Assembly (NCBI GenBank): GCA_965649765.1
Contig: OZ287759.1
Coordinates: 24,614,001-24,678,000, forward strand
Source: Bispira polyomma
Taxonomy: Eukaryota
Reading direction: 5' to 3'
DNA: 64,000 bases
The position numbers and the translations under genes are program-made. This document shows positions 701-59,200 of the stretch, piece by piece (the first letter of the stretch is position 1; the number at the start of each line of letters is the position of its first letter). The notes below the pieces were generated by a model. The model made no database searches and was not told the DNA's origin. It saw only the letters and a list, made by a program, of their open reading frames with translations.

Positions 701-1747
701 AGATTACATTAGATTTGACTAAATTCGATAACATTCGATATCATGAAGCTAACTGAATGTTAACCTTATTGAAATGACTTGGAATATAGCAAGAATAATT
801 TGAAATGAATATTTAAAAAATGATTTGTCTCAGGAGTATAATTTGTGCTATTTTTTGAATGTTTAAAATAAAAAAAAATATTTACAGATGTCTGTAACTA
901 CTGCAACGTTTTCATTTTAACATATAGCTATTATAGTTTGGTGAACTATTCTCTTATTGTAGGACCTCAAAGTTAAGTTTTGAGATGTTGTTGGCAAAAG
1001 AAAGCTGATAGAGATAATTCCACACATAAGATACTAAAAGTTGATCGTCACTCTGTTGTATATGAGCCTATATGTTCAGCATTTGTGTACATAGTTTTCT
1101 TATTTTTTTATCTGTTTTGTAAAACTTGTAGTGATACCTATAAATGTATGTAAAGTGCCAATTTGTGCTGGGCAGAACTTTTGGTGAATAGTGTATTTTA
1201 TCATTTTATGTAAAAAGCTAAACTTGGCAGAATGGAATAACCTTTGTTGTATAGTGTGGTTTTCCACACACTTACACACAGTTCAATATTATCATATGGG
1301 TCTAATGTCTTTAAACTTTTAAAGGGTGTGAAGGATTATTTGATTTGGGTTTGAAGCCATTCTGTATTTGGGGTCACACAATCAAGTCAACATGTGTGTT
1401 GAAGAAAATTGAAGTTTGTGACATATTGTTTTGTACACTGTATGAGTGGAATTAGAGAATAGCTGATTGCTGTACAGTGTATGGATTACACTTGATGAAT
1501 CGTGAACATTAATTATTTTTGGAACAGTGTTGTACTTGACCATATTGAATTTATTTAATTCAAGTTGATGGTGTTTATTTATTGTATTTGTTTATAGGAT
1601 TGTTATTGGTTGTTATTTTCATAAATAAATTAGTTAACTCATATGTTGGTTCCCTGCATTAATACCTGAGGCTCGAATACAACTCACTCTAATATACTAA
1701 GACAAAAAGACTGATTTCCTGCTGTTAAAGTTTAAAATGAGTTTCAC

Positions 1748-2938
1748 TTGGTTTGGTATAAATGGCAGTGTCCTTAACTGGATCAGATCCTACCTTACTC
1801 TTAGGGCACAAAGAATTAAACTAGATGATCACCTATCATCTTCCATAAAGCTACCATATGGAGTACCCCAGGGATCCGTCCTTGGCCCTCTACTTTTCAC
1901 CCTTTATACACATCCTCTCAGCACTGTCATCAATAAACACAATATAAAACACCACATGTATACAGACGACACTCAAGTCTATTTCTCCCTCAATCCACAA
2001 AACACAAATACTAACATAGAACTACTTGCAGACTGTCTGTCGGATGTCCAGGCGTGGATGAACTACTACAAACTAAAGCTTAACCCTGACAAAACAGAAT
2101 TCATCCTCATAGGAAACAAGAAAAACAGTGAACTCCTAAAATCTTTGTTTTCCATCTCCCTGTCGGGAAAAGACATACTACCTTCCGAAAATGCTAAAAA
2201 CCTAGGTGTCACTTTTGATTCAGCTTTTTCGTTCGATACTCACATTGCCAACATCTGTCGCTCCTGCTATTACCACATATGTGACATCAAAAGAATCAAA
2301 AACCACTTGTCCATGGACACAGCAATAACTGTGGCAAATGCCCTTGTGAGTAGCCGCCTTGACTACTGCAATTCTCTCTTGTACGGAGCAAACAAGTCAA
2401 ACATTAAAAAGCTCCAGTCCGTCCAAAACTACCTATGTAGGGTTATTTTTTGCCTGGGTTGTCGCACAGACGTCACTCTTTACCTCAAAAAATTACACTG
2501 GTTGCCTATTAAATCTCGAATTTTGTTTAAGATTCACGTTACCACTTTTAAGGCTGTAGTCACCCAACAGCCACCCTACCTTGCCTCCCTTCTTTCCTTC
2601 AGTAACCACAAGAGAGGCAACAGATTCTCTGTCACTTCGGTCAGAACAATCAGAAAGGCGGGTTTCAGAGCGTTCTCCACTGCAGCTCCACGGTTATGGA
2701 ACAGTCTCCCAGTTTACCTCAGATCAGTTGACACACTTATTGGTTTTAGGAAAAAGCTTAAAACCTATCTTTTTAATCTTGCCTACCCACCTTAGCTTTC
2801 CTCGTGCACGCTCCCACTTCCTTCCTTACGACTTTGCAATTTCCATGGACTTAATGATTGGACTAATGATTCTGCTGTTGCGCTTTAGAAGATGCCTAGC
2901 ATCAATAAAGCGCGTTAAAAATCTATAATAATAATAAT
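1748..2938 (+). mobile_element. 5'-truncated L2/CR1-clade LINE (RT C-terminal half, 3' UTR, (TAA)n tail)
   Basis: ORF 1737-2795 contains GVPQGSVLGPLLF, YTDD (YADD variant), KLKLNPDKTE, SRLDYCNSLL, LHWLPI and ends YLFNLAYPP*. The tail is taataataataata. Receptor-unit sequence resumes on both sides. Confidence 0.93.
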
Positions 2939-3647
2939 ACCTTGATCAAAACTCAAGCGTTGTGAAATATTTTTGAACATCACTAAGATCTCTAATTTTT
3001 AGTGTAACATGTGACTTGTTTTTATCCTAGTTCAACTTTGCACGCATTTGTCAACAAACAAGCGGGGTCTTTATTTCTCTCCACAAGGCACAGAGTATTG
3101 AGGGAGGGGAATTGCTCTTGTGATGTGCTAAGTAGGCCCAACGGGCGTAGTGAGTTCAGTGCAGACCTTAAACTCTTCTTTTAAAACCATTCTGGTTCTG
3201 TGACCTTTTCGTTTATTGGCTGGCAGTTGGCCTTGATTCTATAGCAATTCCCACCAAGAGCCATAGAACCTCACTTTAAATTAAGAAATCGAAAGGGCAG
3301 AACGCCATTTTATAAAATTTTAGATTTTCTTCATTTTATTTTTATATTTTATTTTACTCTATTATTTTACATTTGTGTGTGTTTTTTATAATAACCGAGT
3401 CTTCATATATGTTGTAGTCATGGAATGTGTGCTGTCTGGATTAGAAAACTGAACTGCTGGCACCTGACTGGAGTGTTTTGTCAAGCTATCTTTGACATAT
3501 GCAAATTTGCTCTTTTCTCGGGCTATGGTTGAGGGCTGTCATTAATTCTTTTTGAAATTTACTAGATTTATTTGCTACAAAAATTCACAACCTCAACCTC
3601 GGTAATCCGCATATACCAAAGATTCTTGTCATTCTATTTTACAGAAA

Positions 3648-4607
3648 ATGGCACCTCGGGCCACATATGATTGTAGGGCTTGTAAAACAACTCATAGAAA
3701 GCCAATTAATGACAATTGTCCATTTGTTAATGACTCTGGGACTAATGAAGAAAGTGACACTTCTAGTATGTCGATTAATCTGCGCATATTGGAAGAGCTA
3801 AAGGGTTTAAGTGGACGAATGTCGTCCATTGAGAAACGTGTGGAGCAGACAGAGAACAGTCAAATTGCTAAAAGTGTTGCGGCTAACGCTGCTTCAACGG
3901 CTCCTGGAACCCTTCCTGTAACTATGGCCACAGGAACATACAGTCAACTGTTTCTGCTGAAGTTCCCGCGGCGACGTCTGAGCTGGGATAAATGAAAAAG
4001 GTAATTTTAAGTCGCAAAGAGGCGGCACTGAGACCGTTTGGGTAAAACACCAGGTTGCCTGGCCTCAGAACCATATTCTAGGGGGTACTACAAAAACTCG
4101 TACCACGTATGATAGCCTCTCTATGGCCCAATGGGTTCTGTTCTATAGTTAGAGATGAAAGCAATGTCGAATTAAAAAACGCTGTGTTAGAGTATGCCCA
4201 AGACCTCATGGAAGACTGTAACGACTTTTCTTGGACAGGGCTAAAGCTAGTCACGCAGTATTGTTATGTCGTATGGAGGAAGGAAAAGTTTCCTGGGATG
4301 AGACAAGTAAAATTGACAGAATTAGGAGGGCTCATGCTCAGAAAGTAGTTAACAATGGTCATTCCACATTTCCACATTTACAAATTCTGGTAGGGTTCAC
4401 AAGGGAAATGACAAGGGAATCCCTTGTAGGTACTTCCAGAAAGGTTCATGCCCACACAATGTGGACCATGAAACAAAAGGGCAGATGTACTTGCACACGT
4501 GTGCTACTTGCTTAAGTTTTGGTAAATCCTTTCCCCATGCATCAAAAGACTGCAACCGAAATAAGACTAGTAGATTTAGTGACCAAACTGGTTCAAAAAA
4601 CGAGTAA
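3648..4607 (+). pseudogene. gag-like ORF1 of Ngaro A (frameshifted)
   Basis: N-terminal CRACKTTHRKPINDNC, a coiled-coil-like segment, KSQRGG...WPQN, AKASHAVLL and a C-terminal Cys/His finger ending SKNE* at 4607. Confidence 0.8.
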
Positions 4608-4629
4608 GGCACTGCAGTACAGCAGTGCC
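4595..4629 (+). promoter_or_regulatory. Predicted -1 ribosomal frameshift signal
   Basis: A_AAA_AAC (4595-4601), a 6-nt spacer, then GGCACTGC-agtaca-GCAGTGCC (4608-4629). The -1 frame is the pol frame. Confidence 0.8.
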
Positions 4630-7011
4630 CAAAAGTTATACTAACAAAGATGATTGTAATTCTCTTGTACATATCAAACATAGAAATCAGTATTGTAGTA
4701 GTCGTACTGTTTATAATGTGAATATGATTAACCAAAGTGATAACTGGAGGGCTAACTGGGCTCGGTTTGCAAACAAATCCTATGCCCAAGTAGTAAAGCA
4801 AAATAGGGGTACTGAAGGTCAAAAGTATTCTTGTAAAAGTATCACAAAAAATGCCCATCCCTCCAATTGTCGCTCGGGTATCAACAACCAAGTGTTTACA
4901 CATGTTTCTGTAAATAATGTACACAGTTTCAGGAAATCTCATGCAGGCGCGAAAAACAAATGTCACACCCCAAAAAGAGGTGTGAATGTCCAAAACACTT
5001 CTCACTTAAATGTACAGTTTCAAAACAATGGCCAGAGTCGCACCTCTGGTGTGACAACATGCGACAAGGTAATCTCTAGCAAAATGTGTGAAAATGTCCA
5101 AAAAACTTCTCACTCAAATGCACAGTTTAAAAACAATGGCCAGAGTCGCACCTCTGGCATGAAACCATGTGACAAGGTAATCTCTAGAGAAAGGTGTGAA
5201 ACAAAGTGCGAAAATAGATTTGTACCCTTACAACATCTCAATGAAGATAACGGCACCTACTATTCAAATGACAAAATGGTTTCTGATAACAATGTCCCTA
5301 GTAGTCAATGTGAGGACAAGTATGAATTGCAACTCCAAGTGAAAAGAAAACACAGGGAGGTCATTGCTAAAGCAGAAAACAATCCCCTTTTCAAAAAATG
5401 GAACAGCCAAAAAAAAGAAAAATTTGGCTTTATTCCTCTAGGAAACCTTAAAATGCCAAATGAGATTAAAGTCGGTTCACACTTAGGCGATCCCCTTGAA
5501 TTACACAAAGCAGTTAAAAAGCAAAACTGTCCAAACTTTCTGGGCGCCCAGATACCAGTGGAATCGGAACTTCACGTCAACGAATGGGAAAAATTGTTAG
5601 ATAATTACTGGGACAGTCAACTCGTGCACCTCATCAAATTTGGCTTTCCCTTAGATTTTAATAGAGCTTGTCCCCTAGAAAATAAGGGAGCAAACCACAG
5701 CTCTGCTACTATGTTTGAAAACGACGTTAAGACATATCTTAAAGAGGAAAAAGAATTTGGAGCAATTATTGGTCCGTTTAAAGAACCCCCATTATCTGAA
5801 TTGCATATCTCTCCATTCATGACTAGGCTGAAACCAGATGCTAAGCACAGTAGAGTTATAATTGATTTAAGTTGCCCACAAGGGCAAGCAGTCAACTCGA
5901 CTATAAATAGAGATCAGTACTTAGACACTCCTTTTATTCTCACGCTTCCTACAGTAGATGACATTACTCGGAATATTGTTAAACTAGATAAAGGTGCATT
6001 ATTATACAAGTTAAACATTAGTCGTGCTTTTAGGCATGTAAAGATCGACCCAGCCGACTATGACCTACTAGGGCTTCAACTTAAAGAGTACTACATTGAT
6101 ACTTGCCTGTCATTTGGCTATCCCCACGGCAGTGCTATATTTCAAAGACTCAGTGACGGAATTTGTTTTATGATGACGTCACAAGGTTAGGACGTAGTAA
6201 ACTACATAGATGACGTCATAGGTTATGGTCTTCCAAACACAATCGGAGATTCATTTGAAAAATTAAAAGAACTTTTCCAAAAGTTAGGCTTTGCCATCAG
6301 TCAGAAGAAAGTAGTTCCGCCAAGCACTAAGGTAGTCTGTTTAGGGGTTTTAGTCAACACAGAGGACTTTACTGTCTCCATACCGGACAGTAAACTTGCT
6401 GAGATTAAACAAGTTTGTCTCTCATGGACTAAAAAAAAAGCATGCACCAGAAGACAGCTTCAATCGCTACTGGGCTCGCTATTATTTTTCACGAAATGTT
6501 TTCAAATCTTACAAGTTTTAATGGTATGGCCTTCTTTGAACACAAACCAGTCACAGATCAAGTTCACCTAGACGCGTGTCTGCAAGGTCTGGGTGCTTGC
6601 TGCAATAATGAGGTTTATACCAAAGAAATCCCACTTGGCTATAGAAATTATACCACAGTCCATCTTGAAATGATCAATATATTAGTCGCAATCAGAGTTT
6701 GGAATAATAAATGGGCTGGACGCAAATTGCTTATACATTGTGATAATCAAGCGGTAGTATCTATTCTAAATTCAGGCAAGACACAGGATCTTACTCTGGC
6801 AGCAATGACCAGAAATATTTTTATGGAGGCTGCAAAAGCAGACATAGAATTAAGAACGGTACACATCTTAGGCAAAAGAAATGTCACAGCAGACTTACTC
6901 TCTAGGTGGGCTATCACCCCTCATAATAAAGAAAAATTAAAAAGCTTAATGCAAAATCCGACTTGGATACAGGTCAGTGATGACCTTTTAGAAGTAAATT
7001 GGTCAATCTAG
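4601..7011 (+). pseudogene. pol (RT + RNase H) of Ngaro A
   Basis: LIKFGFPLDF, ISPFMTR, RVIIDLS, SRAFRHVKIDP, then NYIDDV after an in-frame TAG at 6188-6190. RNase H motifs DACLQGLG, HLEMINI, CDNQAVV and ADLLSR lie in 6442-7011. Confidence 0.92.
4984..5200 (+). repeat. In-frame 108-bp tandem duplication in the pol N-terminal linker
   Basis: NVQNTSHLNVQFQNNGQSRTSGVTTCDKVIS followed by NVQKTSHSNAQFKNNGQSRTSGMKPCDKVIS. Confidence 0.9.
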
Positions 7012-7033
7012 TTTTTTAAAAAAAAATTTTCAG

Positions 7034-8024
7034 GCTCTCCAACCTGGGTGTCAAAGCTTGCAGAAAGAGCAGCCAATAGAGCATATCAGGCATTTCGTCC
7101 TTCTACACATAAAGCTTACACAGCCATGTTTAGAGTATTCTTAGCCTACTGCTGCTTTGCTAATATCTCAGTCTATAACATCACACCCCCGTCACTCCTT
7201 GCCTTCTTAGAAGTGCTAGTAGTAAACAATACTTCACACAGTTCAATAGCAAACTACCTCGCTGCCATTAAGGCCACCATGTCATTGTATGGGCTCAAAA
7301 TTACAGCCTTTGCAGACCAGAGGATAAAATATTTTCAAAAAGCCCTGGTCCTACACAAGCCATTTAAAGCCAAAATAAATGGCATTATTGATGTTAACCA
7401 ATTGCAAAACATAGCTCTAATCTGCGACTCCATGTATATGGGTCAAATTTATAAAGCAGCTTATCTGCTTGCCTTTTTCTCTTTCCTTAGAATTTCGAAC
7501 TTAGTGCCACATTCACAATCTACTTACTCACCACTGCACCAGTTAGCCAGGGCTGACGTTATTTTCGCCCCTCCAGGCGCCAACATAATTATAAAATGGA
7601 CAAAACTTTACAAGCTAGAAACGCAATAAAAGTCATCGAAATTCCCATATTGCAAAACAAAATTATTTGCCCGGTAACAGCTCTAAAAAACTTGCTGGCT
7701 ATTACTCCTGGCCATAACAATACCCCATTGTTCCAAATTAAAAGTGATACTCAATGGATCACCCTTACTGACACCAAATTACGCAGAAATCTTAAGGACA
7801 TCTTGAACAGACTAAATAAATCACAAGCTAACATCACTTTCCATACGTTTAGGCGTTCTGGGGCGACAATGGCCTTTAAGGGCAATGTGCCCCTCCAAGA
7901 CATTCAAAGCCAGGGCATCTGGTCCTCCGAGTGTGTCTGGAGATATATCACTCAGGACCATGCGGCCTCTGATCAGGTAGCCCTGGCCCTTCAATCCCTA
8001 CTCAACCCTAGTCCTACTTTTTAG
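7034..8024 (+). pseudogene. Tyrosine recombinase of Ngaro A (one frameshift near 7600-7630)
   Basis: Catalytic motifs FLRISNL, CPV, HTFRRSGAT, GIWSS and VWRY. Confidence 0.92.
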
Positions 8025-11000
8025 TTGGGCCTTGGTGGTTATTGTCTTTTTATATATCATTTATATGCTATAATTTTTAAACTTTATTATATACTTAAGG
8101 CCACCTTATAGGCAAAACATCTGGTAACCTTAACTAGATAGATGTAAGGCTAAGGCCAGCAGAAATTGTGTAACTTGTTAAGTTTACCTTAAATTTTGGT
8201 AAACTTAAACTTAAACTTTAAATTACGTTAACCTTAAACTCTTAATCAAAAAATTATTTTAATGTGGCCTCAATTATTTTCAAAAATAAATTTTAACCAA
8301 TTGTAAATGAATGTGTAGTAATAGATTAAATATATATATCCCAACTGCTAGTCTTTCTTACAAGGTCAACTTTCAAAACTCAAGGTCAGGGCACTGAAGA
8401 AACTTTGCCTCTCGTGATGTTTGATGACAGAAGAAAAAAACTCTTTTTATTTTCCCACTCTTTATTTAATGAAAGACAAATGGTAACAAAAATTTAAAAT
8501 GGAAATATAAACTAAATATTCAGGTGGTTTACTACTAATTTAGTAGTAATTGTATGGTAAATCACACACATTGGGACTAGGGGATGATCTGACACACCCT
8601 TTATTATCAGCTGGGGTGGAGTGCTGTCCACTCCATTGAGAATATTGTCCCAACCTGATTATTACACAATAAAAACAAATTATCCTGGTCTCTACATTTC
8701 TTACCCTGCTCTTAATGTACACTGCCATCCAAGAAGTACTGATCTCTATAAAAGTAAAATAATGTAAACACTAATGTACAATACCAGGCTTATGACAATG
8801 CTAGAGAGCAGAATAATATCAATGTCCCAAACTCAACCTTTGTTACCTGAACGTCTATTATCCAATTGTTAGATTTTATGGACATATTTCCACTCTCCAA
8901 AGTTTATTTTTTTATAGTGTGTTGTACAGAAATACACTTTTTCTGGTAAACTTATTACATTTTACTCTCTAAGCATATTTAGATAATAAGATTCCATTCT
9001 AGGCTTAAATAATATCCCATGATTGGAAGTTTAAACATTTTTATTATAGAGGCAATCTTTTCTAAGATTGTATCAATTTATTTGAGATCTTAGCCCCTTT
9101 CTAGTTCTAGTCACCCAGACAAATGATGGCTTCCTTATCTAGTGAACGGAATTGCCAGTGAGGTAAAGCTATTGAAATTAATGAGGTTGAAGTAGTTTAC
9201 CCACTCTATGTCATCTTGCATGTTTAACCTTAATTATATGCACTGTAATAATGTCCATGGCTACTAATTAATCATAAATTTTGAAACAATAAACATATAT
9301 TTGTTTGTATTTCTGTGAAATAAAAAATACAAATTAGAAAACAAGCTTAAAATGACTGCTGTAAACAAGAACAGTCCATCAAAGTAAAAACAGTAAGATT
9401 AAAATGTGACACCAGTCTAGTGAAAATTACTCCAAACAAGAATAGTTTTAAATGAGATTAAGGTTGCTACAACATCTGCTGTTCTTGTGTTTTATTATAT
9501 TGTCTCTGTGTAGTGTTTGGTGTCAGAATGGGCTGCCTTATGGCCTGTGACATAATCCAGAGGCTACACTTGTATTAGTGTAGGACTAATGAATTGACAA
9601 CCTCTGGTGTGGCTTGAGATTATGATATGGTGTTATTATTACAGCTTGTTAGACTTCATATTACACATATTTATAATCACTTGTTTAATCCCAGACTCTA
9701 GATCATATATATACTGGCATGTGTTTGGGGTGTGTTCTAATATATTTTTTAGTTTAAATATTGTTTATTTGCAGAAATGTGAGTCTGTGTTACAGTGCAG
9801 AATATGAAAGGCTATATAATGTCAACAAAACTCACTGTAGTACAAATGTCTTTTTTTTTATCATATTTCACTAGATACTCCATCTCTACTTTTCTTGAGA
9901 TGATAACATGATGCTTTTGCAAAGTAGTTTATGATTGTAGATTAAATTTCAGAGTTGTGATTTAGTTAAAGTCAATCAGTGTCAAAGAAGTTTTACTAGT
10001 AAGTGGGACCAATAAATACATTTGGATGCTAGTTAGAGTCTTATATTACTGCTGTAATAACAAGACTGTTATATATCAGAAATAATTATGTTGAAATATA
10101 AACGACGGCTAGTTAAACTGACAATACGTTGAAATATGTATGGTGGCTAGTCAAACTGACAATATGTCATTTATTGAGGCAAACATACATTAAAGTAATG
10201 TGGAACTTCTTTCCGCAAATCATACTTCTTGAAACAAGCATTTGTGGAATTTCCAAAATTATAAGTAACTTGAGCTATATGTGAGTTTGAGTTTGAGTTT
10301 TAGGTTTAAACTAACTAAAACAAACTTCCGAAGTAGTAGAATACCTCAGAAAGCTTAGAGTTTTATATAGACCCAATTTTTCTTACTTAATATCTCAGTA
10401 TCGATTCCAGGCCTCTTCCTTAGTGCAACATCCCTGACAATAAGGCTTTCAGTCGTAATACTAATACATTGCTAATTGGAGAACACATATTCCTATGAAA
10501 CAGAATTGGCTGTCATCTTGCCCAACAATGTTGTCCCCCAATGATTCTTATAGTGTGACCGAAAAAATTGATCAGGGCACCTTCTGATCACCTAATCTGA
10601 TTTCCAACCACGAATAAGACCAGGGTACCTTCTAATCATCAGACCAACTATCTAGGTAGAAGTTGAAGCAGAAATCTTCTAATTACTGGACTAACTTTCT
10701 AGAGAGTAGACCCCAGGAGATCCGACAGCACTACACTAAAACTCTAATGGTGTTTCAAATATTATTAGAGAAAAACAAACCAAAAATATTTGAATCTAAA
10801 ACAGTCAAAACTATCTTATTATTTATAATTATTCAATCCAATATTTTGTATATTAACCTCATGATTCATATTTATTTATAATTACTTTTTCTTTTAGTAT
10901 AGATATTTCTATTGTCATTTATACATAACTTAAACTCAGGTCCTACTGGATTCACATTAGGATATGTATGTCATGCATGGCGCTGTGAGAAATGTGTAAC

Positions 11001-11574
11001 ATAACAGGTTTGTTTAAGTTAAAAAACACACACACACAAATATAATGTAGAATGTAGCATGGTTCAATGTATAGTTGCATGACCTTTGCGAGAGATGGCG
11101 TAGTCTAACATAATGATACATAAATGCTTGTGAATGTAATACGCAAAGGAACCATGCTACATCGTATGCGTGTCAAAATTTTGAACAGTTCAAAAATTAA
11201 AATTTTGTGTGCACATCTTCCATGCCAGGTTATGTACATCCACGATCAACATTTTAAAGGACACAAAACTAATGCAAATTCCATGCAAACTTAACTTTTA
11301 CACGAGATCTAGCGTGTCCCACTTTTTCTTAATATCAACTGCCATGATTTATAATAGCAGGTGAAAACTGTTATTTATCATGTTGACAGTAACATCCGAC
11401 TTTTTAATTTCACAGACTAGAAAACATTGACAATATGACATAGTATCTCCAGTCAAGTGAAGAGACGTCAGACATATTTCAAAATTTGCAAACAAAAACT
11501 ACATAATAATTGACAATTCATGCATGATGGTTAATTACACCATGTTGTTCCATCAATTTCAGGTTGTTATTGCT

Positions 11575-12080
11575 ATTATGCATTGATATACATTGATATA
11601 CATTGATATACACTTTATTGATGCTAGACATCTTCTAAAGAGCAACCGCAGAATGAGGGATCTAATCGTGTAGGCCATAGACATAGCAATGTCATAAGGA
11701 AAGATGTGGGTTACACAGGAGGGATTTAAGGTTTTAAGCTTTTTTCTAAGTGTATCCGATGATCTGAGGTCGACTGGGAGACTGTTGCATAGCAAGGGAA
11801 CTGCATTGGAGAAACCTCTGGATTCCGTCTTTCTAGTGGGTCTAACAGAAGAAACAGATTCTATTGCCGCTCTTTAGGTTTCTGAAAGAAAGAAGGAAAG
11901 TGAGGTAGGAGAGCTGTTGAGCGACTACAGCTTGAATGTGGTAATGTGAATGTTCAAAAAAATTCTATAGTGAATGGGAAGCCATTGTAGTTTTTTCAGG
12001 TATAGAGTGTAGTCATTGTGAACGCCTAGATGAAAAATTACCCTGCATAGGTAGTTTTGAATGGACTAAAGCTTTTTAAT
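11575..12080 (-). mobile_element. L2/CR1 LINE 3' fragment
   Basis: Reverse-complement homolog of about 2400-2935. Confidence 0.88.
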
Positions 12081-13631
12081 TTCTTACCACAAACTTTAAA
12101 CTAAAGTACCAAAAATTGTATGATAAATAAAACATTATTGGAGCTCACACATTAGGTAAACTTACAAAACATATACATGAAACACCATATTTGCTTTCAG
12201 ATAGAAATTGTTCTATCATCCACAAGTTCATCTTCATATCTTTAAATACTTGTGACAAGGTTTTCTTCAAAGAACAATACAAACGGTTACAGACAAGTCA
12301 ACATCTGATGTGTCAAATTTCCACATTATATATCAGTTTACAAATTATAATGGTATTGCTAACAGCCCATCAACATCCCGACTGTCCTTGTACTGGACAT
12401 TGTTACATGTACTCAAGATAGATCTTATTTGACATTAATTAATGTGTATGGACATCAGAAGGATTTCCAGGGTGTGTTATATTCTGCAATAGCAAAAAGA
12501 CAATATTGCTTTACGTGAATAAGTTAAATAGGGATTGACGAAAAGAAAAACAGATCTAAGACTATATAATTATTTTTAGGAGACATTACCATCTGACTAA
12601 CCTGTGAGCAGTAATGAGATAAAGTCATGACCATTTCAGAAATGTTTAAGCTCTTTAAACTATAGATTTGTTCACATCAATATTTTTTTATAAACCCAAT
12701 GCTAAAGATTAAGATTAACAAATTACATGATAAAACATTATAAGGTAAATATGTAAATGCAATACATTTATACACTGGCAGTGATTTAATAGAATCCACT
12801 TCAATTATCTGTGAGTCAGTTCCAGTGGACAGGCAGGGGGTCATTATCTGAAGAGTGGCGTTGAGCATTCTCAAGGGATCATTCTTTAACTCTCATCTGT
12901 CTGGATACAATGTCCAACACATTTGTTCTTGCCACTAGATGTTTTTTTTTCTTGGGAAGACAGAAAAGTGTTACAGATGTGTCCTTGTTTAGAGACCAAT
13001 ATGTTTTATATACTGGATCAGTATCTCTCAGATTTGATTACGTGAAACTTACTGAAGGTTGATATACATGTAAATACTTGCAATATGGTAAGACTAATTT
13101 GACTTTTTAGGAGTATAAGTCATGCAAAATAAGATGTGTTCGATAAGAAAAAAACTACAAAGGTCTCATATAAACGTATATTAGCTCATACAGTTTCTTC
13201 AACTGTATTCTGTTGTTGTGGGACCTCAAAAGTTGTTTACTGTTGTTATCATTCAAACAAACTACCTAAAGTACAGTATAGAGATGAATATACACACAAT
13301 ATGCCAACAGGTGATCAGCAGATTCTAATAGTCTACAAGCAAAGTATGATAAAATGCTAAATATTTCATGTTAAGGTTTAGCATAAGTTTAACTTTATTA
13401 GAACCATGTGGAATATTCATGGGCATCACTAACCTCTTCCTTTTTGGCGTGACTTCTTTTCTTCCTAGTATTACTTTCCTCCATTTATCAACCAACCAAC
13501 AGGGTCTTAATTTCACTCCAAAAGGGAGTTAGTGTTCTAAAGAACCTACATTGCTCTTTACGTTATCATTGTTCAAGTATTTGTAGCATCTAGTCAGAGA
13601 ATTAAATATATATATATATATAGATATATAT

Positions 13632-13727
13632 ATATTATTATTATTTATTATTATTATTATGATTTTTAATGCGCTTTATTGATGCTAGGCATCTTCTAAA
13701 GCGCAACAGCAGAATCATTAGTCCAAT
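13632..13727 (-). mobile_element. L2 3' UTR/tail fragment next to a (TA)n tract
   Basis: Near-identical reverse complement of 2857-2938. Confidence 0.88.
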
Positions 13728-15559
13728 ATATGAAAAAAACATTCCTGACATTTGAAATATGATTACATTTAAAAAGATCTTACATCTGCAATATGCATGT
13801 ATAGTGATGGAGATACAATTACATTAGGTAAAACCCTCAATCCAATTAAATCAAACTTTGCTGTAAGAAGACACATTCTCATTGTCCTGTATTATCATCT
13901 CAGTGTCTTTGTATCTGCAGTATTTAGCTAAATAGTAATCAATTATGTCAAATCACCTTGGTTTTTTCTTTATAAGGGCACAAGTGATTCCTGAGTTTGG
14001 AGATGGGATATGTATATAATTTAGGTTGAGTAGGTACCAGTCCCTGTTATCCAATCTAGTGTAAGGTTCAAAGATCTGAGCCCCTTTCTGGTTGTAGTCA
14101 TGCAGATAAATGGGGGTCTATCTCGTGTAGCAAAGTGGGACAAAGTCATTGAAATTAATGACACAGAACTAGTTCACTCACAATGATTGTATATCTGCTT
14201 GACTGATTCGTAAAATCATAATTATATTCATTGTAATACTCATAACCAATGCAAATTTTTCATTAACAATATATAGCTTTTTGGGACACAAAAATGGAAC
14301 AAGATCATAAAAACAAATATGGTACAACTACTTCACACAAGAAGGATTTTAAAATGAAGCTGTTCAGAGTAAAGTTACTACATCTGTTATAAAGTGTGGT
14401 TTCATGATATGGTATCTGTGTAGTGTTTGGTGTCAGACCTGGCTGATTTATGGCCTGTGACATCATCCAGAAACTACACTTGTATTAGTGTAGGCTAATG
14501 AACTGACAACTTTTGATGTGGCTTTAGATTACGATGGAGTGTTATTATTATCACAGATTGTGAAGCTTCATATTGCACACATGTCTGTATTCTCTTCGTT
14601 TACGTGCAAACATTGAAAAACTTACACTGGCATGTGTTTGGGGTCAAATGTTCTAAGTGTACATTAGATTTTCTTGATGTCTTCCCTTTTCAAATGTGAT
14701 TTATCTGTAGAAATATGCTATATCCCAGCCACTAAATTCAGTAAAAGGTAGCATATTCCCTGTGATAGGATGTCACATTCTCTGAATCCTGTGACCTATT
14801 TAAAATTTGTTGGTGGAAAATAAGTTTCGCTTATCAGTAACTATGCCCAGGAAATGTAACAATCAATGTCGATAAGTAGTCAGTTTTAAAAGAAGTAATA
14901 ATAGGGTCCAAATTGATGTTGATACATTGTAATAATTAGTGCATAAATAGATAAAACTATAGTAAACTGCTCGTCTTACACAATAAAACATTGCAGTTCA
15001 GCAGAAATGCCTGTTTCCACCTATCCCCCACATGCAATAATTAATTTAAATGAAACTGTGTGCAAATGATTGAACTGCACATGTAAAGCTGTTCTCTAGA
15101 GAGAATTGCAAGTAATAGAGCCCTTCGTGTTCTTTCTAAGCTTTTTTATAGTTGTACCAGACTGGCAATTAATACAGAAGGTCATCTAATTAGTTTAAGG
15201 ATCTTTGAGGATTATTTACAAGCATCAATCTCAATATTGTATCTTTTAGTTGTATTTTTTCCACTTTTTGGTTGAATTAATGCAATACTCCACCTAATCT
15301 AAATAACTCACGCCTTTTGAATTTATTTTACTTCCTTGTCGTATTTCATATACTAAAATATTGTATTTTACTTTATTATCATTAAATGACTAAAATTGAT
15401 TAGTATGGGTACAACTAATAAATATTTTGTGTGGTGGGTAATTAAAGTGACCAAGGTAATGTGAAATTGCATTTTGCAGGTCATTTTGGTTACAATAGAT
15501 ATCTAAAACTTCTTTCCTTTCCCTGCAATGTATTGTGTACACCGACAATATGATAGATA

Positions 15560-15810
15560 ACCAGCAGTCCTTTTGCTTTTATTGAGCATTAATTGAGCTA
15601 GTTACTCTCCAGAAGGGAAATTGATGGTCATTCACTTGAAATAGAGACGGAGAAAACAACATTGTCTGCTTGTCAAATTGAATCCTCGTATGGTATTCCT
15701 CAAAATCAAGTCTTACGCTCTTAAGCTCACATATTGGAGCACAATATACATATATAGTATATACCTATGTGGGCTTTACTTTTGAGCTATGTGTGAGTTT
15801 TAGCTATAGT
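15560..15810 (+). repeat. Dispersed non-autonomous repeat (MITE-like family)
   Basis: Reverse-complement homologs at ~36725-37075 and 37940-38030 (core attaattgagct.gttactctcca...gggaaat). Confidence 0.6.
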
Positions 15811-17036
15811 TTCTTTGGCTTTAAAGAATACATACCTTGATCTTTACTGCATGATTTACAAAAACAGTAAAAAAGTACAGTAAAAAAGTACAGTGGCAGT
15901 GGTTAACCTAGTGGTTAACCTATGAAAAATACCTGTTTCTAATAATTTTCCATACATTTAACTAACAATTACTGACTCAAATATACATCAGCATTTGTTT
16001 CATTGGAGAGTTGTATCCAAGATTGATTACATTACTGTAGGTAATGTTTTTTGTTCAATTGGTGTGGACACTTCGAAGGGAAATACACCATCAAGTATTG
16101 TCCTAATTGCTTTTTTTGCATTTACTACTTTAAAGATTAGCTTATTATCAACAAATGTGATCATACTATTTTGTTATAGTATGATGAATATTTATTCTAT
16201 AATTAATTTACTTCTTTTAGCATAGGTATTTTTCCATTGTCATTTGTTTTTTCTGTTGATATAATTTCAGATTTACTGATTTTGTCCACTTCAGTGCCCC
16301 ACGTCCACCATTAACTGCCCTTAATCTTAGTTAAGTAACATTAATAACATGTGTATGAAACCTAAGATCATTTAAAGTGTTTGTGATCTAAACAATTACT
16401 CTTATTTATCACAAGTGTCTCTAGAATATGTAAAATTAAAATTCTGCAATAATAAGAAGACAAAAATGGTTAAATGGAAAAATGTTTAATGGAGATTAAG
16501 GAAAATAAAAAAATACCCAGTTGGCCATTATCCGTCGGCTTTGTAAACAATGATAAGATAAAGGCATGACCATTACAGTAATGTGTAAACTCCTTTAATT
16601 GGTGTTTTGTCAGTAACTGAATGCTACTATTTAGCAAATAACCTTGACAATGAATAACAATGTAATAATACAAGACAAAGAAACATTAAGCTATTTATAC
16701 AGATCCAATGAATAGAATCCACTTCAATTATCTGTGTGTCGGTCCTTGTGAAGAGGGAGGGGGTCATTAAATGAAGAGGGAGCATCCAGTCTTTCAGTGG
16801 CATTGAGTATTCTCAAAGGAGCATGTTTTGAACTCACATCTGTCTTGATACAAATGTCGAACACCTTTGTTTTAGCACTATATTATTTTTTCTCCACGCA
16901 ACAGTCTTCAAATGTGTGTCTTAATGTGCAGACAGAAATATGCTTTGTGTACTAAATTGTGGAATGATCTGCTTCATGATCTTCGCACTTCCTCCTCACT
17001 GTCTCCTCACTGTTTTGGAACGAAGTTAAAAACCTA

Positions 17037-17247
17037 CTGGTGCTGTAACAGTTAAAGCCTGCTGGCAGATAAGGCCCTGAATTTAATGGTTATTATCTCC
17101 ACAAATAATGTGGTACTGCAAACTAAACGCCACAGTAAATAGACAGGTGTATTGAAAATTTATAAAAAAGCAATATTTAAATATATCTCCACTGAAACAA
17201 TGGGTGGGCCTTTTACTGATTGTAGGCCTTAACTGTAACAGCACCAG
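17037..17247. mobile_element. Tc1/mariner-type MITE, 211 bp
   Basis: ~26-bp TIRs (CTGGTGCTGTAACAGTTAAAGCCTGC ... GTAGGCCTTAACTGTAACAGCACCAG) with TA on both sides. The empty site is visible in copy 1 (aaaacctacc at 541-550). Confidence 0.92.
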
Positions 17248-18078
17248 TACCTATTTGGCAATGCTTTTCCACCTTAGCCTCTTTGCTATTTCCAGTGTCT
17301 ATAAGGTCATGACCCCTGTACGTCCAATGGCTATATGAAATTATAAAAATTATTTTCCTGTCTCGTGCATCTTAAATTTTGCTAGCATTGAGAGAACTGC
17401 TTGTTACAATTAAGGGGAAAATGTAGGCATAAAATCACATAGTGATGCTCAAACTAAGTTTATTAATACAAAGAATCCGGAATCATTCCCAAAGTAACTG
17501 GCGCCAGTGTATACAAAATAATCTGTAGACATAGTACAACAATGGATCAAAAAACGGTCCACTGGATGGGTCCCAAAAGTCCCTCAATTATGCTGGTCAC
17601 AGGATAAAATCAAACAGTCCGGTAGAAAAGCGAGTAAAAAAACGTCACACTGCTGGTTGTTTGAATTTAGGAAGTATTGAACATAAATATCAAGGTTACG
17701 AAGAGACGAGTGTGATAAGCAACATGACGAATTTTGGCCATATCCTGTGTGTATTTTTAGCCGTAGGCTGCGCTAGCAGTCACTTAATTGTATACGTGAT
17801 TTAAAACATTTAAATTCCATTATAGCTTAAATAACTGGATAAAATCATTAACAACTATCACCACCCTATTTTTAACCATTAAAAACTAAACCTAACTTAA
17901 TAATAACATAACCTACAATAAAATGAGTAGTTTCGGGTGAGCACTAAACCCCCTCCCCCCATAAGCATCAGATATGTTATAGAAATTAAATGTTGGCTAT
18001 CTTTTTCGTAACTCCCATTTGATGCATAAAAAATGTATGTGATATTTAAGCTCATTCATACAATTGAAACTGTAAAGT

Positions 18079-18348
18079 TCATTTGCAGAAATCACAAATG
18101 AAAGATTCTTTTTGTGTTATTGAAATTCCCAAACACAAACAATGGAACCACCGTTCGCATGTATCGCATCCTGCCCATTTTATGTTTGTAATGCTTTTGT
18201 TCCTTGCAGATTTTCCTATCCCCTTACCTGTTCCTTTAGGTGGTGGAGTTGGTTGCATACAATTACAACAAACTGTTGTATCAACCACAGTGTCAGTAAG
18301 GACATTATCCCTTTTCGCATCATTGTTTGAAACAGTTGAAATGAACAA
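18079..18348 (-). pseudogene. PHD finger, probably the C-terminus of a pogo/Tigger-like transposase
   Basis: CCNC...WAGCDTCERWFHCLCLGI...FICDFC fits the C4HC3 pattern. It is on the same strand as the HTH relic at 24230-24451. Confidence 0.75.
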
Positions 18349-18999
18349 GTTGTTCAGGACAATGTTTCATTTCCCCAAGTAACAGGTCAAAGGTCAGAGA
18401 TCAAGAACACAGGTATGTATACACACAGGATGCGGTAAATTATTTATTGTTAGACTAAGATGTTAAACTACTATGTACAAGGCAACTTAAGGTCACCATA
18501 ACTAATTTTTATATTACAAGAAGTAAGTGACTTAAGGCCACCTACAATAAATATTTTTTTTAGATTATTAATTTTGATAAGGTCACCTTACCTTTAAGGA
18601 AAAGTCATTGTCCATATTACATTTATACGGCCCTGTGGGCAGTTAAGCAAAGGTGACCTTAGAGTCCAAATGAAGTTACGATAACCTGTGAATTTATGGT
18701 AAAGTTTAACTAGAACTGCATTATAGGCAGAGATATATTTAACGGTGTTAATAATAGCACTGTAAGCATAGCCTCAAGAGTGAGACAATTACAGTTAAGT
18801 TACTGAGTTTATGACTATCAGGTTACGTAATTACAGTTAAGTTACTAGCAAGTTACGTCATTTATTAAAGTGAGCTTTAGAAGTATCTACATATACTTTA
18901 TGAGTAATAAGTGAATTACCTGAGTAAGTTACAGCTGTAAAATCATTTACATATGACAATCAGCCAAACCCCAAAAGGTAGGGTAGGAGAAAGAAGGCT

Positions 19000-19990
19000 T
19001 AAGGAAGGGGGGAGACTGTAAGTTGATGCTTAAAGGTGTCAGCCACTTGGTTGCCGGCATCAACAGTGTCGGTGACAAACCGTCACATGCAATCCGAGGT
19101 CCAGGTGCCATGGTTTTGTATATTTTGAATGTTAACATTATTATTGAAGGCAAATGTGGCACCTGAATGACGGAAAGCGTGTAGGGTAAGTCCAGACTCT
19201 TTAAGGTTCAGTCTGGCAAGAATATCTGTGAAATGATGATGTACCTTAGTGTCAGTTAGAGGTACCCACTTCTGGCTGACTTTTATTTGGAATAAGAGAA
19301 GGTTAACACCAGAAGGTGAAATAGCCATAATGTCCTCAAGTGACCTCAGAGGGCAAAGGGGGGAGCCTATTAGACGGATGATGATGATTATTTTGATTTG
19401 TTTATTATTCTGCATGGTCTTTGACCATTGAATGAATAGTACAGCCTTATCAGGATGAAACATAACGTCCCCACATGCTAGATGTTTTAAAGGAGAAAAA
19501 AGGTGGACAGCATGGGGAACAAGGTTGGAAAGGCGTAAGAAAGAAAAGAAGCTAACTAGGTATACAGCTTGAAACACCAGTCCCACGTAAGTGATGAGTG
19601 AAAGTCTCACAATTTTACCCAAAGTGGAAATATCTATAATTTTTTTCAGTTTAACCTGGAGAGGGGCCGACATCTGGACAGCCTTTTTACAGTAAGCAAT
19701 CCGTGGGTCACTGAAGGCCAGAATGGGGACATTATGGACAATAGACTTAGCCTTGATAGCAGAAAGATACTTGGCCATCAAAGCAGGTTTTACAGAATTA
19801 AAATTTAGCAATTTTAAGAAAGCAAGGAGGTGAAACACAGTCACCTGATCCACTGGAAGATCCATGAAGGCAGCATAGGCATGATATACTCTATACATTG
19901 ATTTGTAGGACCTGTCAGTAGATCTACAGAAAGCCAGGTGTAGCTTTGCAGTGGCATGTCTGTATAGTGACTGCTGAACCGGGTTACTCT
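19000..19990 (-). pseudogene. Tyrosine recombinase of Ngaro B
   Basis: FLRLSNL, WSKT.Q, LCPL, HAFRHSGAT and HGTWTSD in ORF 19083-19898; the C-terminus is frameshifted. Confidence 0.9.
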
Positions 19991-20029
19991 CTGTAAAAAT
20001 AAAACCACAAGGAAGACACTAATGCTATG

Positions 20030-22461
20030 TTATTTATATATTTTCGTTTACTTTAAGGTGATCATTTGTAACAGAGCACCACTGAATTGGAACTGCAAGT
20101 TCATGTAAGCGAATATAATTCTGCTGAGAGTTGGTCCATTGTGACAGTAGATCAGCAGTGGAGTTGTCTTCACCTAGATATGTATTACTTTCAGCTCCAC
20201 ATCATATTGGCTTGCTGTCATGAAAATATTTCTAGAGTATAGAGCTAGAGTCTCATCTCATGTTCTACCATGGGTGAGAACACTGGGTGAGTACTGCACG
20301 ACCTCTCTATTGCACACCCCACAACCTGAGAGCTACCAATATGTTAAACATTTCTAGGGAAGCAATATTTAGTTGTTGCATTTCAAAAGGTATAGATAGG
20401 GTGTATACTTAATTGTCATAAATACCTCCCATACCAGTAAGGCAGGCATCTAATTTTATAATAGCAGTAATGGGTTTGTGTTGAAAAAAGGAAACCCCAT
20501 TGAATTTGGTAAGAAAGGTTCTAAACCAATTGAGATCTTTGTTGAATTCAGGGGTAATTTTGATTTATTTATTTTTGTGGTTGCTTCTGAGGAGGTGGAG
20601 CATCCTATAAAGGAAAAACCTGTAGTATTTCACACATTTTGAAATATATAAGAGAGAACCTAGTAGGCACTGTAGTTCACGTTTAGTACAGAATTTTTTG
20701 TTTGCCCAGCTATCACAAGTGGTGTGGATATTTAGTAATTTCTCCTCTGGTATGGAGGTGGTGAACTCCACAGTGTCTATAACAATACCCAGACAGGTAA
20801 CCTGTGTAGCAGGGGGAACCAGTTTGTTCTTACTCAAAGTCAGACCGAGTTCGGTTAATAGAGCCTGCAATCTATTGTAGGTTTTGTAGATTTTTGTAGG
20901 TACTGAGCAGCAAAGAAGATTGTCGATGTAGTTCGTAATCTGATGACCTTCACCTTGCATTATATCCCTTATTCCATCCGAAATTCGCTGGAAAATGGCC
21001 GAACCGTCCTTATAACCAAACGGGAGCGAGCCAACTATGTAATAACCATCCCAGTACAGTCCCAGCAAATTAATATCTCTCGGATCTATAGTCACATGTC
21101 TAAAAGTGCGACTTATATCAGCTTTAAAGATTAAGGAACCTTTTCCCATGACAAGTACCTGCTCAGTGATTGTATCAATAGAAGGATAAGTGAGTATAAA
21201 TTACTTTCCTAAGTATGTGGTAGGACACACTGCTACATTAACCGAATGTCCGAGGGGCCATCTTAAGTCAATGATAACTCGTCGGTTAATCGAACTCGAC
21301 TTGTCCCTGGTCATGAAAGAAGTACTTTATCAATTAGGGGAATTGCAAATGGGCCATACGTGGCTCCAAAGTTAAATTCCTCTTTTAAATAGTAAGTCAC
21401 ATGATCTGGATACTGAGTAGCTGAAGAATGGTTATCGAGTTCAGAGTGAAAGACATGTTCCTCGTCACAATCAAGGGGGGAAACCAAATTTTATGAGTAA
21501 AGGGAGTTCCCAATCCCAATACCCAGTCAAGTATTTGTCCCACTCTAGGGCATTCAACTGTGTAATCACGGGTATTTGTAAACCCCTATAATTGGACCGC
21601 CCATCTTGTTTTAGTCGCTTATGTAAAGCGAACACGTCAATAGTAACCTTGTTATGTGATTCATTTTGAATGGGTACACCCCACAAGTGGAATAAAACCA
21701 AATTTCCCGTTATTTTGAATATCCCACAACTTGTCGGTATTGCAGTCTTTGGCACTATTTAGACGCTGTCTTTTTTTGGGACATTTGTACACTTTCAATG
21801 CATATTTGTCGTCCCAAGTATTCACTTGAGTGTTGTACGTTTTTGCTTATTTGGAGGCTTTTGACAAGATTTGCCATCAACCACGGGGGCAGAGACAATA
21901 GTTTCCGCGGCCTGTACACTAGCGGAGTCTAACAATGCAAATCTATTGTAAACGGGTAATTGAATTGTTGACACCTTGTGCCAGGTTAGTTTGTTTTACA
22001 TTCGGGGACAAAGAATGCCCCCCTTTTGGGGGAGGGGCTTTTTGACACCTATTGTCTGCCCCGGCTTTGGCAATTTGTGACACATTGTTAGTCCTGCTAA
22101 CAATAGAGCATAAATTGGATCTGTTGGCACAGAAGTTTCCATTGTGCGACCTGGGAGAATGTAAAGGCTTATTTACACGTTTTAGTTTGGCACCCTTTGT
22201 TTTACTGAAAGCTCTCGTTTTTACTTCCAAAGAGAAAGCCTGCCTCTCAATATTCCCAACATCACTCACAGGACCTTCTTGTTTTATTTTGTCAGAAACA
22301 TCTTTTCCCAATACCACGTCCCTGTAAGACCTTTTTGACACACTTGATACATGATTAAAACACAGATTAAAATCAGTAAATGCAGAATTATACACAACTT
22401 TAGAGTAGACTTTTTGTAACCTTTTTCTCTCTGCCACTGCATTATTGCAGTGGCCCCTTAG
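20030..22461 (-). pseudogene. pol (RT + RNase H) of Ngaro B, multiply disrupted
   Basis: ORFs 21943-22437, 21471-21755 and 20565-21149 (KADISRTFRH, LPFG, YIDN, CLGIVID). Confidence 0.88.
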
Positions 22462-22467
22462 TTTTTT
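22433..22467 (-). promoter_or_regulatory. Predicted -1 ribosomal frameshift signal
   Basis: Minus strand: A_AAA_AAC, TAAGGG spacer, GCCACTGCA-ataa-TGCAGTGGC. The -1 frame is the pol frame. Confidence 0.8.
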
Positions 22468-56269: not shown

Positions 56270-59200
56270 GTCGGGCATGGCCAGTCAGTCGCGCAAATTT
56301 AGACTTTTACTGTACTCCCTGGTGACCAAGAGCATAGCGGTCGTTGGGGTTCAAAACTTTGTAATCAGCAATATAGGGCTATAGGGCCTATTCTTCACAT
56401 TGAAACCCAAAGTCTAAGAGTACACACGGCAAGGCGATAAAATTAATACACACCGCCATATTGAATTTTATGATACTTTATATATTTAACACAGTTTTTA
56501 GCTTAGTTTTTAAACATTTTACATTTTCAAGTGAACATTTGCGGGAATTATTAACTTTCACATACTGTGCGAGTCATGGAAACGCAAAATAAAAAGGATA
56601 ATGTTGTTTGTTCTCGATGCCCACAGCCGCACGAGAGACCAGTAGGTAATAGATGTACCAGGAATGTTTCCAGCGTTTCCAGCTTTCACAACATACTGGG
56701 AGTAATCAAAACTCCGCGAACAGAAATAGATGTTCTAGGAATGTTACCAGCATTTCCTCAGCAGAAGCAGAGACACACAAAGTCTTTTCACAGCATACTG
56801 TAAGTACACAAAGCGTGGCTACTTCCCCAGACAAATTGTCGCAATCTACAAATGAACTGTCGCATTCTACCAAAGACTCGTCTCATTTAACAAACGACTC
56901 GTCCTCTACCAATGACTTCCTCCAACAGTTTTGTTTACAACAGAAGCAAGTATTGGACACCATTTTGCAGTCTGTTCTTCTCTGCAGAAAGACGTGGACG
57001 TTTTAAAGGTCAAAGATCGGGACAGTGCTTCACAGGGTAATGTACAACTACTATCCTCACCTCAACAGTTACAAGCACAATCTTGTGATATACAGCAGCA
57101 GAAAACCACTACTTCAAAGCAAGGTAATGTGTCACAATTATTGCCTCTGTCGCAACAGTTATTATTACAGCAAAAAGTATTACCACAATCACAAGATCTA
57201 GTTTCACAGAAAAAGAGTGACATGGTTCACAGTACTCTGGCTGCTACAGTTATTCCACCCACCACTTTGGGTTTTGTAGATCCAACAGCACATCTAGGCC
57301 TGAACCAAGCGCTTCAGCCAAACCAGGTTGGTGACTTTCATCATGACATCTTGCCATCCACCGACGTTCTCAGGCAATCTGCTATTATTCAGAACGAGGT
57401 ATTGGCACGGTTGCAACAATATGAAACAGCAGCAGCACAGCAGTTGCTTCAGGGTAAGTCTCTGCTGAAGAGAAAGTCCGGGTGGTATAATGTTTCTGAC
57501 ACTTGCACATCTGATCCACTATTTAGATGGCCAAATGAGGGGTGTTTGTCGGGAATTAATAAGAAGAAAGTAGCGTATGACGACCTTACAGCAATTCAAT
57601 TTTCAGCCAGTCAGATAAAGAATATTTTGGAGGTTAAAAACACTCATGTAGCGCAAGCAATGCTTCGGCAGTTGGGTGATACTTTGAGGGATGCATCAAA
57701 CATATCTTGGCTGGTAGCTCGAGGTAGTTATGCAACCAACATGCATGACGTTGAGGAGGGTCGCCTCACGTGGTTGGATGAAACCAAATGGACCATAAAC
57801 AGATTGTCGTATTCGCAAGCTTTACTTTCTTCAAGTGCTACTAACAGCACAGCTCACACAGGAACTAAATCGAAAGTTCCTTGTCGCCATTACCAGCGCA
57901 ATCAGTGCAACCAAGACACTGACCACGAAAATGCCACTACGTTATTCAAACACATTTGTGCAAATTGCTTCCGCACCAGTCGCAGGGAGATGAAATGTTT
58001 TCGTTTACATGGTAAACCAGCAAATAGCAACACTCACACACAATAGGACGGGAGACGACTGACTGATAGCACAGCTTTAAAATTTTCTGAAATGCATGTT
58101 AGTCAAGGTAAACTAAAAGTTAATACTAGAAATGAACATAATTCAGATTTTAAATTAATTACTTTTGAAATGAACGATACTTTTAAATTTCTGAATAATG
58201 AAATTTTTTTTATTGTGAATGAGACAGATAACAAAAGTTCCAACAATGTCATCAGTAAAGACAGTAATGGTGTAATATGTTTTCGGACAAGCGATTATAC
58301 ACCAAGTGACAATATTGATCAAAAGGATGCAGGTAGGGGGAGTGTCACTACAGACAAACATACTCATTTAGAAGGTAATAATAGTAACATGTATACAACT
58401 GTTGAAATTAGTAATACAACTAGGGACTCATGTGATAAGAATGTTATGATTGAAAGTAAAGTTTTTTTTCAAATAAGAACATTTTGTGTGAAAAAACATT
58501 TGAGAACATTATGATGGAAGAAAAAATTGAGGACGTTATGGTTGAACGCATACAAATGTCAAATGAGAACATTATGAGTGAGCAAAAATTTAAGAACATT
58601 ATGATTGAACAAAAATTTTGTAATCAGGATGTACACTTGTATGTGGATAGTAACTTGAATGAGTCTGTTGTAGTGCATTCACCCTCAGTGTCCAATGTGG
58701 GTAAAGTTATTAAAAGAAATACCTTTAATGTTGATCAGCATATTAACACACATTTAACTTATGCTGATGTTTATATGAGTAGCAACAGCATGATGTATGG
58801 TAATGTATTCTATATTGTTGACAAGGAAATGATATTACAGGAAGCTCTTTGTTCTGTGGCCGATATTTGGCCAGTGTGTTATTTGTCTTCTATGACAGTA
58901 GTTATTATGACTGCTATTACTTCACCAAGAAAAGGTCAAAACAATAGCTTACAACACATCAACAACCGATAAACCCGGCAAAATTAGTACCTCCCAGTAA
59001 GAAAGTCTCCTGTATGGGAATCACTATAGATATCGAAAAGAGTACTTTAAGCATCGATGAAGACAAGCTGCTAGCTATACACAAAACATGTTTTGAATTT
59101 GAACATTTACCTACGATTAAAAAGAACAAATATCAATCTTTGCTCGGAAAGCTCCTTTACATTCATAAATGCATAAAGCATTTTAGAGATTTTCTCAACA

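Follow-up and report, generated by a model that had tools for sequence, protein, structure and literature searches.

We describe here a cassette of 35 nucleotides (nt) that lies at the gag-pol junction of two retrotransposons, elements A and B, in a 64,000-nt stretch of the genome of Bispira polyomma (the window; contig OZ287759.1 of assembly GCA_965649765.1, positions 24,614,001 to 24,678,000, forward strand). Both elements encode a tyrosine recombinase (YR). The cassette has an identical register in the two, and consists of the heptamer A_AAA_AAC, a 6-nt spacer and a perfect hairpin. It is real and conserved, and very probably a functional -1 frameshift signal, as judged from sequence comparison. 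We consider it highly likely that it programs a -1 ribosomal frameshift that makes a Gag-Pol fusion, and that it goes back to an ancestor shared by a broad Ngaro-like group. The features of the elements are listed in Table 1.

Table 1 Features of the YR elements in the window; hairpin energies are predicted values
Feature	Position	Strand	Remarks
A gag	3648-4607	+	broken by frame changes; zinc-finger segment 4359-4604; stop TAA 4605-4607
A slippery heptamer A_AAA_AAC	4595-4601	+	Lys-Asn in gag frame
A spacer GAGTAA, 6 nt	4602-4607	+	gag reads K-N-E-stop
A hairpin, 8 bp, 6-nt loop	4608-4629	+	-15.7 kcal/mol
A pol, -1 frame, reverse transcriptase (RT) plus RNase H	4583-7011	+	broken: stop 6188-6190, later frame change
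A tyrosine recombinase (two frames)	7012-8024	+	acceptor-like AG 7032-7033
B gag	23518-22458	-	broken; zinc-finger segment 22721-22467; stop TAA 22460-22458
B slippery heptamer A_AAA_AAC	22467-22461	-	Lys-Asn in gag frame
B spacer TAAGGG, 6 nt	22460-22455	-	gag stop first; gag reads K-N-stop
B hairpin, 9 bp, 4-nt loop	22454-22433	-	-16.8 kcal/mol including flanking bases
B pol, -1 frame, RT and RNase H	22476-20022	-	broken
B tyrosine recombinase	20018-19008	-	acceptor-like AG 19992-19991
C, third YR element in the window	56916-59808	+	gag related to A and B; RNase H 58948-59805

The heptamer shares the reading frame of the C-terminal zinc-finger segment of gag, in A and B alike. The stem arms are GGCACTGC (4608-4615) and GCAGTGCC (4622-4629) in A, with the loop AGTACA, and GCCACTGCA (22454-22446) and TGCAGTGGC (22441-22433) in B, with the loop ATAA. 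The two stems have a common core, CACTGC-N6-GCAGTG. Translation of the junction in the -1 frame gives KKRVRHCSTAV for A and KKLRGHCNNAV for B, the hairpin itself being read as His-Cys-x-x-Ala-Val in both. This frame stays open for 531 codons in A, where it reaches the RT domain, and for 174 codons in B. An earlier note on this DNA had claimed a heptamer in the gag frame, a 6-nt spacer holding the gag stop, a perfect hairpin with differing loops and a -1 frame opening into pol, and all of these were confirmed, positions included. There is no ATG at the pol junction: the first ATG of A pol is at 4724, 48 codons in and behind part of a conserved motif (profile E-value 5e-15), and the first open stretch of B pol (22476-21943) has none. 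A canonical -1 signal is expected to have a spacer of about 5-8 nt (PMC7075266), and the 6 nt of A and B fall inside this range. A and B also have other sequence features of a canonical signal, namely a phased heptamer, a predicted stable hairpin and an open, coding -1 frame without a start of its own.

The earlier note also called for a search for a pseudoknot downstream of the hairpins, and none common to A and B was seen there. The loop of A has 5-bp complements 37, 61 and 75 nt downstream, whereas the loop of B has only G-U-rich ones. As the complements differ in this way, and the loop residues vary among the relatives described below, a conserved pseudoknot was provisionally set aside.

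The combination is rare in the window. Canonical heptamers occur 975 times on the two strands, and in four cases a 5-9 nt spacer leads to a perfectly paired stem that is at least 8 bp long. These four include A and B; the remaining two stems consist almost purely of A/T. When all 975 are ranked by the folding energy of the 30 nt after each heptamer, B comes first (-16.8 kcal/mol) and A second (-15.7), followed by a third at -15.0 kcal/mol. The z-scores for folding reach -4.85 and -6.41 when pieces of 39 nt are cut around the hairpin, and they weaken in longer pieces (-2.6 and -2.0 at 99 nt, -1.9 and -1.2 at 141 nt).

A and B can also be compared with each other. They are identical at 25 of 35 letters within the cassette and at 21 of 60 on each side of it (ungapped). 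The statement of the earlier note that the flanks lack similarity therefore holds for DNA but fails for protein, as the gag, RT, RNase H and YR proteins of the two elements are homologous. It follows that the two cassettes are homologous and are not two independent events. In RT, RNase H and YR the synonymous positions are saturated, with matches at 28 of 111 fourfold sites and at 64 of 134 twofold ones. Despite this, the heptamer is identical at all seven bases, the register is exactly kept, and the pol-frame codons for His, Cys, Ala and Val have third positions with pairing values at all four places in both elements. One stem pair has changed on both sides (G-C versus C-G). The cassette is conserved between A and B beyond neutral expectation.

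Further copies were found in contigs from three sequencing runs (X1-X3; two samples of one study, possibly from the source organism), which were placed on positions 4250-4950 at 80% likeness. In X1 the summed depth at 4586-4633 is 3,100-4,300. The adjoining bins have 160-260 and the best bin within gag about 1,040, and the profiles of X2 and X3 resemble that of X1. Loose contig ends pile up at 4594/4595 and 4628/4629, which are the two ends of the cassette. Together, the depth island and the loose ends suggest that diverged copies keep the cassette and lose likeness around it, and among the contigs of other copies there is a conserved island at 4594-4629. Upstream gag is linked to 4584-4608 in 8 of 13 joints. 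The insert of one joint reads as a copy with A_AAA_AAT, likewise a canonical heptamer.

These data bear on an explanation that needs no recoding, in which the Lys-Asn end of Gag and the His-Cys-x-x-Ala-Val of Pol are required as protein, and shared ancestry does the rest, the hairpin being a by-product of near-complementary codons. The codons for His and Val, and for Cys and Ala, are indeed partly complementary by nature; conservation of sequence in the CACTGC/GCAGTG core exceeds covariation; and the motif is not directly visible in 35 of the 43 pol records considered below. We nevertheless regard this explanation as highly improbable. Four wobble bases in the stem have been kept despite saturation elsewhere, for which a codon count gives a chance of about 1 in 64 per lineage. 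The conserved island in the DNA stops at the heptamer on one side and at the final base of the stem on the other, and protein constraint would leave pol without a route to translation.

The gag relatives provide a wider view. A search with the gag core of B gave 43 proteins. A profile was made from 41 of these and found matches in 3,287 cluster representatives (clustered at the 50% level); the best 150 were taken, 148 of them new. Of the resulting 191 proteins, the 81 that have a terminal zinc finger followed by a tail of 4-45 residues were counted, including 52 of the new representatives, and the other 110 were left out. Taking protein ends as stop codons, Lys-Asn lies within two residues of the end in 49 of the 81 (mean 6.2 and maximum 16 in 5,000 shuffles of the tails) and within one residue in 29 of the 52 representatives (mean 2.7, maximum 10). 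In 28 of these 29 the residue before Lys has a codon able to end in A, compared to a background of 72% in the same tails, which is what retention of the heptamer's first A would lead one to expect. A few gag tails run on into the stem, reading G-T-A (P0030, P0033) or G-T-A-K-L-Q-C (P0093). These show the wobble bases at their pairing values, seen from the second frame. Others read A-R-A, P-R-A or M-T-A, the 5' arm thus varying in some families. A quick gag tree, built without the last 12 residues and midpoint-rooted, has Lys-Asn ends scattered over deep branches, including those of A and B.

On the pol side, a search with the pol open reading frame of A gave 517 proteins. Of the 120 examined, 43 reach the N-terminal motif, and eight of the 43 directly show His-Cys-x-x-Ala-Val, starting M-(R)-H-C-x-x-A-V. 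Their loop residues are NS, HR, PR, KI, SN and HA. All eight have P, L, Q or H next after Val, which agrees with a C pairing to the G before His. Of the other 35, 31 begin M-[PQHL], for which the background is 12%. It is of interest that the gene caller writes M for Val, as seen in three gags that start at the Val of a motif found internally 27 times. Most simply, the M-[PQHL] starts would be calls at the GTG-C of the 3' arm of the hairpin.

A different reading of these starts is that translation ends at the gag stop and begins anew at a start codon overlapping it, with the hairpin helping to retain the small subunit, to give a separate Pol. Six of the 43 homologues are called from M-R-H-C, which would place a start codon over the gag stop if that stop were TGA, and the stop is always near the hairpin. 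However, at the codon concerned A has GTA and B has CTA, and the gene caller writes M for GTG. Reinitiation also leaves unexplained why all seven bases of the heptamer are kept, together with the A before Lys-Asn, and we think it very unlikely. The family-wide evidence from gag, pol and contigs instead supports the proposal of the earlier note that Gag-Pol is made by -1 frameshifting. Within the A and B group, protein frames and contigs both point to retention of heptamer and stem in the relatives, the feature whose absence the earlier note had said would tell against it.

The N-terminal region of pol has some features of its own. The short motif near the pol start, R-x-V..N-W-[RK]-x-[DE]..Y-A-[QD]-V-V, present in the 43 of 120 homologues and at 4720-4800 (+) in A, has no match in Pfam. 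The same region of A contains a tandem duplication of 108 bp, 86-89% alike, at 4973-5188 (+), which keeps the frame. A second heptamer followed by a 7-bp stem, at 5126, was dismissed as it is out of phase with pol.

The hairpin could also act in cis in packaging, dimerisation or reverse transcription, or the region could be a splice signal, with pol translated from a spliced RNA. A donor-like GTAAGG spans the spacer and stem in A. Acceptor-like sequence lies ahead of YR in all three elements, and in A ahead of the gag ATG as well. Against this, B has no GT at the corresponding place, the junction is A-rich and lacks a pyrimidine tract and AG, and the fixed 6-nt spacing and the phase of the heptamer in the gag frame are predicted by frameshifting only. 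The chance that such a role accounts for the cassette is in our view very slight. Transcriptional slippage, in which messenger RNAs with an extra A fuse gag to pol, is extremely unlikely. Lengthening the run by one A would indeed yield this fusion, and some database proteins look frame-changed at the A-run (P0159, P0130), but the run is only six A long, and polymerase slippage usually needs longer runs. Nor does it need a hairpin 6 nt downstream.

A programmed frameshift would operate as follows. Most ribosomes would read A_AAA_AAC as Lys-Asn and terminate at once or within a few codons, so producing Gag. A minority would stall at the G+C-rich hairpin 6 nt downstream, and the Lys and Asn tRNAs would slip back by one base in tandem on the heptamer. 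Translation would then continue in the -1 frame through the hairpin (His-Cys-x-x-Ala-Val) into RT and RNase H, and the resulting Gag-Pol fusion would load RT into the Gag particle. A_AAA_AAC is named as one of the shiftiest heptamers (PMC5009743). Frameshifting in a model system was 23% for this heptamer with a 12-bp hairpin, and for another heptamer 13% with a 10-bp hairpin and 3.5% with a 6-bp one; simple hairpins suffice, and loop size matters little (PMC3203594). Interpolation from these model hairpins suggests a level of roughly 5-10% for a stem of 8-9 bp.

The gag-pro heptamer of human T-cell leukaemia virus type 2 (HTLV-2) is also A_AAA_AAC, and the gag-pro site of this virus is the closest known parallel that we consider here. 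It has a perfect 10-bp hairpin and gives 9% frameshifting in reticulocyte lysate (PMC3203594). It shares with A and B a slippery heptamer, a short spacer, a simple perfect hairpin at the end of gag and an enzyme in the -1 frame. In A and B the stem is 8-9 bp, the loop is 4-6 nt and the gag stop lies inside the spacer. A and B differ also in that the downstream frame encodes RT and RNase H, with no protease detected, and that integration is by a tyrosine recombinase. In animal long terminal repeat (LTR) retrotransposons, pol is in the -1 frame in 28 of 51 surveyed (PMC5009743), and a heptamer at the overlap sets the ratio of Gag to Pol, as it would here; A and B, however, belong to the DIRS order. 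The part of PMC5009743 available has no mention of DIRS, Ngaro or tyrosine recombinase.

A number of observations weigh against our interpretation. The stems of 8-9 bp are shorter than the 10-12 bp of natural frameshift hairpins (PMC3203594). Covariation amounts to a single double change between two sequences, A and B, and the N-terminal pol profile gave B no score. The way in which contigs are placed favours short stretches of exact identity, the variant rows examined number 40 of 220, and depth is not equivalent to copy number. One gappy contig (runs X1 and X3) lacks the whole cassette, 64 bases at 4579-4642, and the ends of this gap are not intron-like. As the relatives share ancestry, the shuffle and binomial figures overstate their independence, and Lys-Asn may also suit a basic Gag tail. 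The reach of the cassette has limits too. Eleven gag proteins and C form a weakly supported side of the quick tree (SH-aLRT, an approximate likelihood ratio test, 90; C is long-branched), with P0140 apart. In the divergent set of these 11 and P0140, which was grouped after the tree was seen and seems to include C, the cassette was not seen: none of the 12 ends in Lys-Asn, versus 29 of the remaining 40 representatives. The 11 exceptions among these 40 lack Lys-Asn within one residue of the end; in two of them Lys-Asn is followed by a longer tail, and the others are variants, truncated or apparently altered in frame. Finally, the signal is not universal, for C has an in-frame stop in place of the cassette.

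The gag of C ends in CAA TAG at 58041-58046, and the same frame reopens for 155 codons (58047-58514). There is neither a heptamer nor a hairpin at this stop (58044-58046). Stop read-through is possible in C, but a decayed copy is as likely. Most of the RT of C appears to be missing. A broader, tentative scheme has two recoding lineages, a split like that of the retroviruses, one using -1 frameshifting (A, B and their kin) and one read-through of the gag stop (C and the gags without Lys-Asn), both with the recombinase made from a spliced RNA and not by a frameshift. This is rather unlikely as a whole; if true, it would supply a full and testable expression programme for a retroelement order for which none is established in the portions of the literature covered.

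With regard to the recombinase, the one frameshift proposal in the literature covered is for the junction of RT/RNase H and YR (Poulter and Butler 2015, as quoted in part of PMC13003380). In A, B and C this junction has instead an acceptor-like sequence, a pyrimidine-rich tract and AG between the pol stop and YR, at 7012-7033 (+), 20018-19991 (-) and 59800-59814 (+) respectively. The tract of A contains slippery-looking T- and A-runs, but they lie behind the pol stop. Another acceptor-like sequence, at 3620-3650 (+), has its AG at 3643-3644, three bases 5' of the A gag ATG. A 5' leader exon spliced to either gag or YR would be an alternative to the GagN-YR fusion put forward in the earlier note.

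The gene order of A and B is gag, RT/RNase H, YR, with no DDE integrase. Matches to the Pfam families RVT_1, RT_RNaseH, Phage_int_SAM and Phage_integrase were obtained, several of them below the curated cut-off, as was the zf-CCCH_4 match of the A gag zinc finger (E 0.0044). No methyltransferase was found: A pol ends soon after RNase H, as do all nine of the long homologues scanned, and this sets the elements apart from DIRS-like and PAT elements. Ngaro elements have the same three genes in this order on one strand, and likewise no methyltransferase (PMC3783388, PMC8547959, PMC9210276, PMC7192593, PMC3266345). Unlike in Ngaro, terminal or split direct repeats (A1-ORFs-B1-A2-B2) around A, B and C were not found by blastn, in copies that are decayed and whose ends are not defined. 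The label Ngaro used in the earlier note is thus upheld by gene order and the lack of a methyltransferase but not by the repeats, and we call A, B and C Ngaro-like.

Frame changes or stops are present in gag, pol and YR of both A and B. With gag broken upstream of the cassette in each of them, present-day Gag-Pol production is impossible for either, and because the elements are decayed their cassettes are fossils of the active element.

A search of the ESM Atlas gave unnamed clusters only. In gag alignment searches, none of 20 candidates from viral contigs and none of 108 from metagenomes was a relative, and prokaryotes gave one weak match (E 6e-4). The cassette pattern was absent from the viral contigs. 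In metagenomes it was found at at least 117 loci, none of the 117 with similarity to gag or pol, although the positive control worked; these are treated as chance or terminator-like matches.

No mechanism for expression of Ngaro pol is given in the available parts of PMC3783388, PMC8547959, PMC9210276, PMC7192593 and PMC3266345. Similarly, a slippery site where gag meets pol in DIRS or Ngaro elements is undescribed in the parts available of PMC8547959, PMC3783388, PMC6681497, PMC3266345, PMC13003380, PMC9210276, PMC7192593, PMC5009743, PMC3203594 and PMC7075266, and of two preprints. Literature searches likewise turned up no paper that reports one. The founding papers (Goodwin and Poulter 2004; Poulter and Butler 2015), Repbase and supplements lay outside the scope of this search. 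The mechanism proposed here is a textbook one, but its host is not: how YR retrotransposons express their RT is left open in the literature covered, as far as its available text goes, and a conserved cassette of 35 nt makes the question directly testable. If we are correct, Gag-Pol would be made in a low ratio to Gag. No protease domain was detected, and the predicted low-ratio fusion speaks for RT being co-assembled into a Gag particle in the manner of retroviruses. The cassette also gives annotators the true start of pol, where gene callers appear to use a GTG inside the hairpin.

Two further features of the window may be mentioned. A reverse transcriptase fragment at 1701-2795 (+), matching RVT_1 with an E-value of 4e-19, has dispersed copies in the window and is probably of the long interspersed nuclear element (LINE) type. 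At 62151-63974 there is a tandem repeat of about 937 bp, its copies 98-99% alike, with internal inverted repeats.

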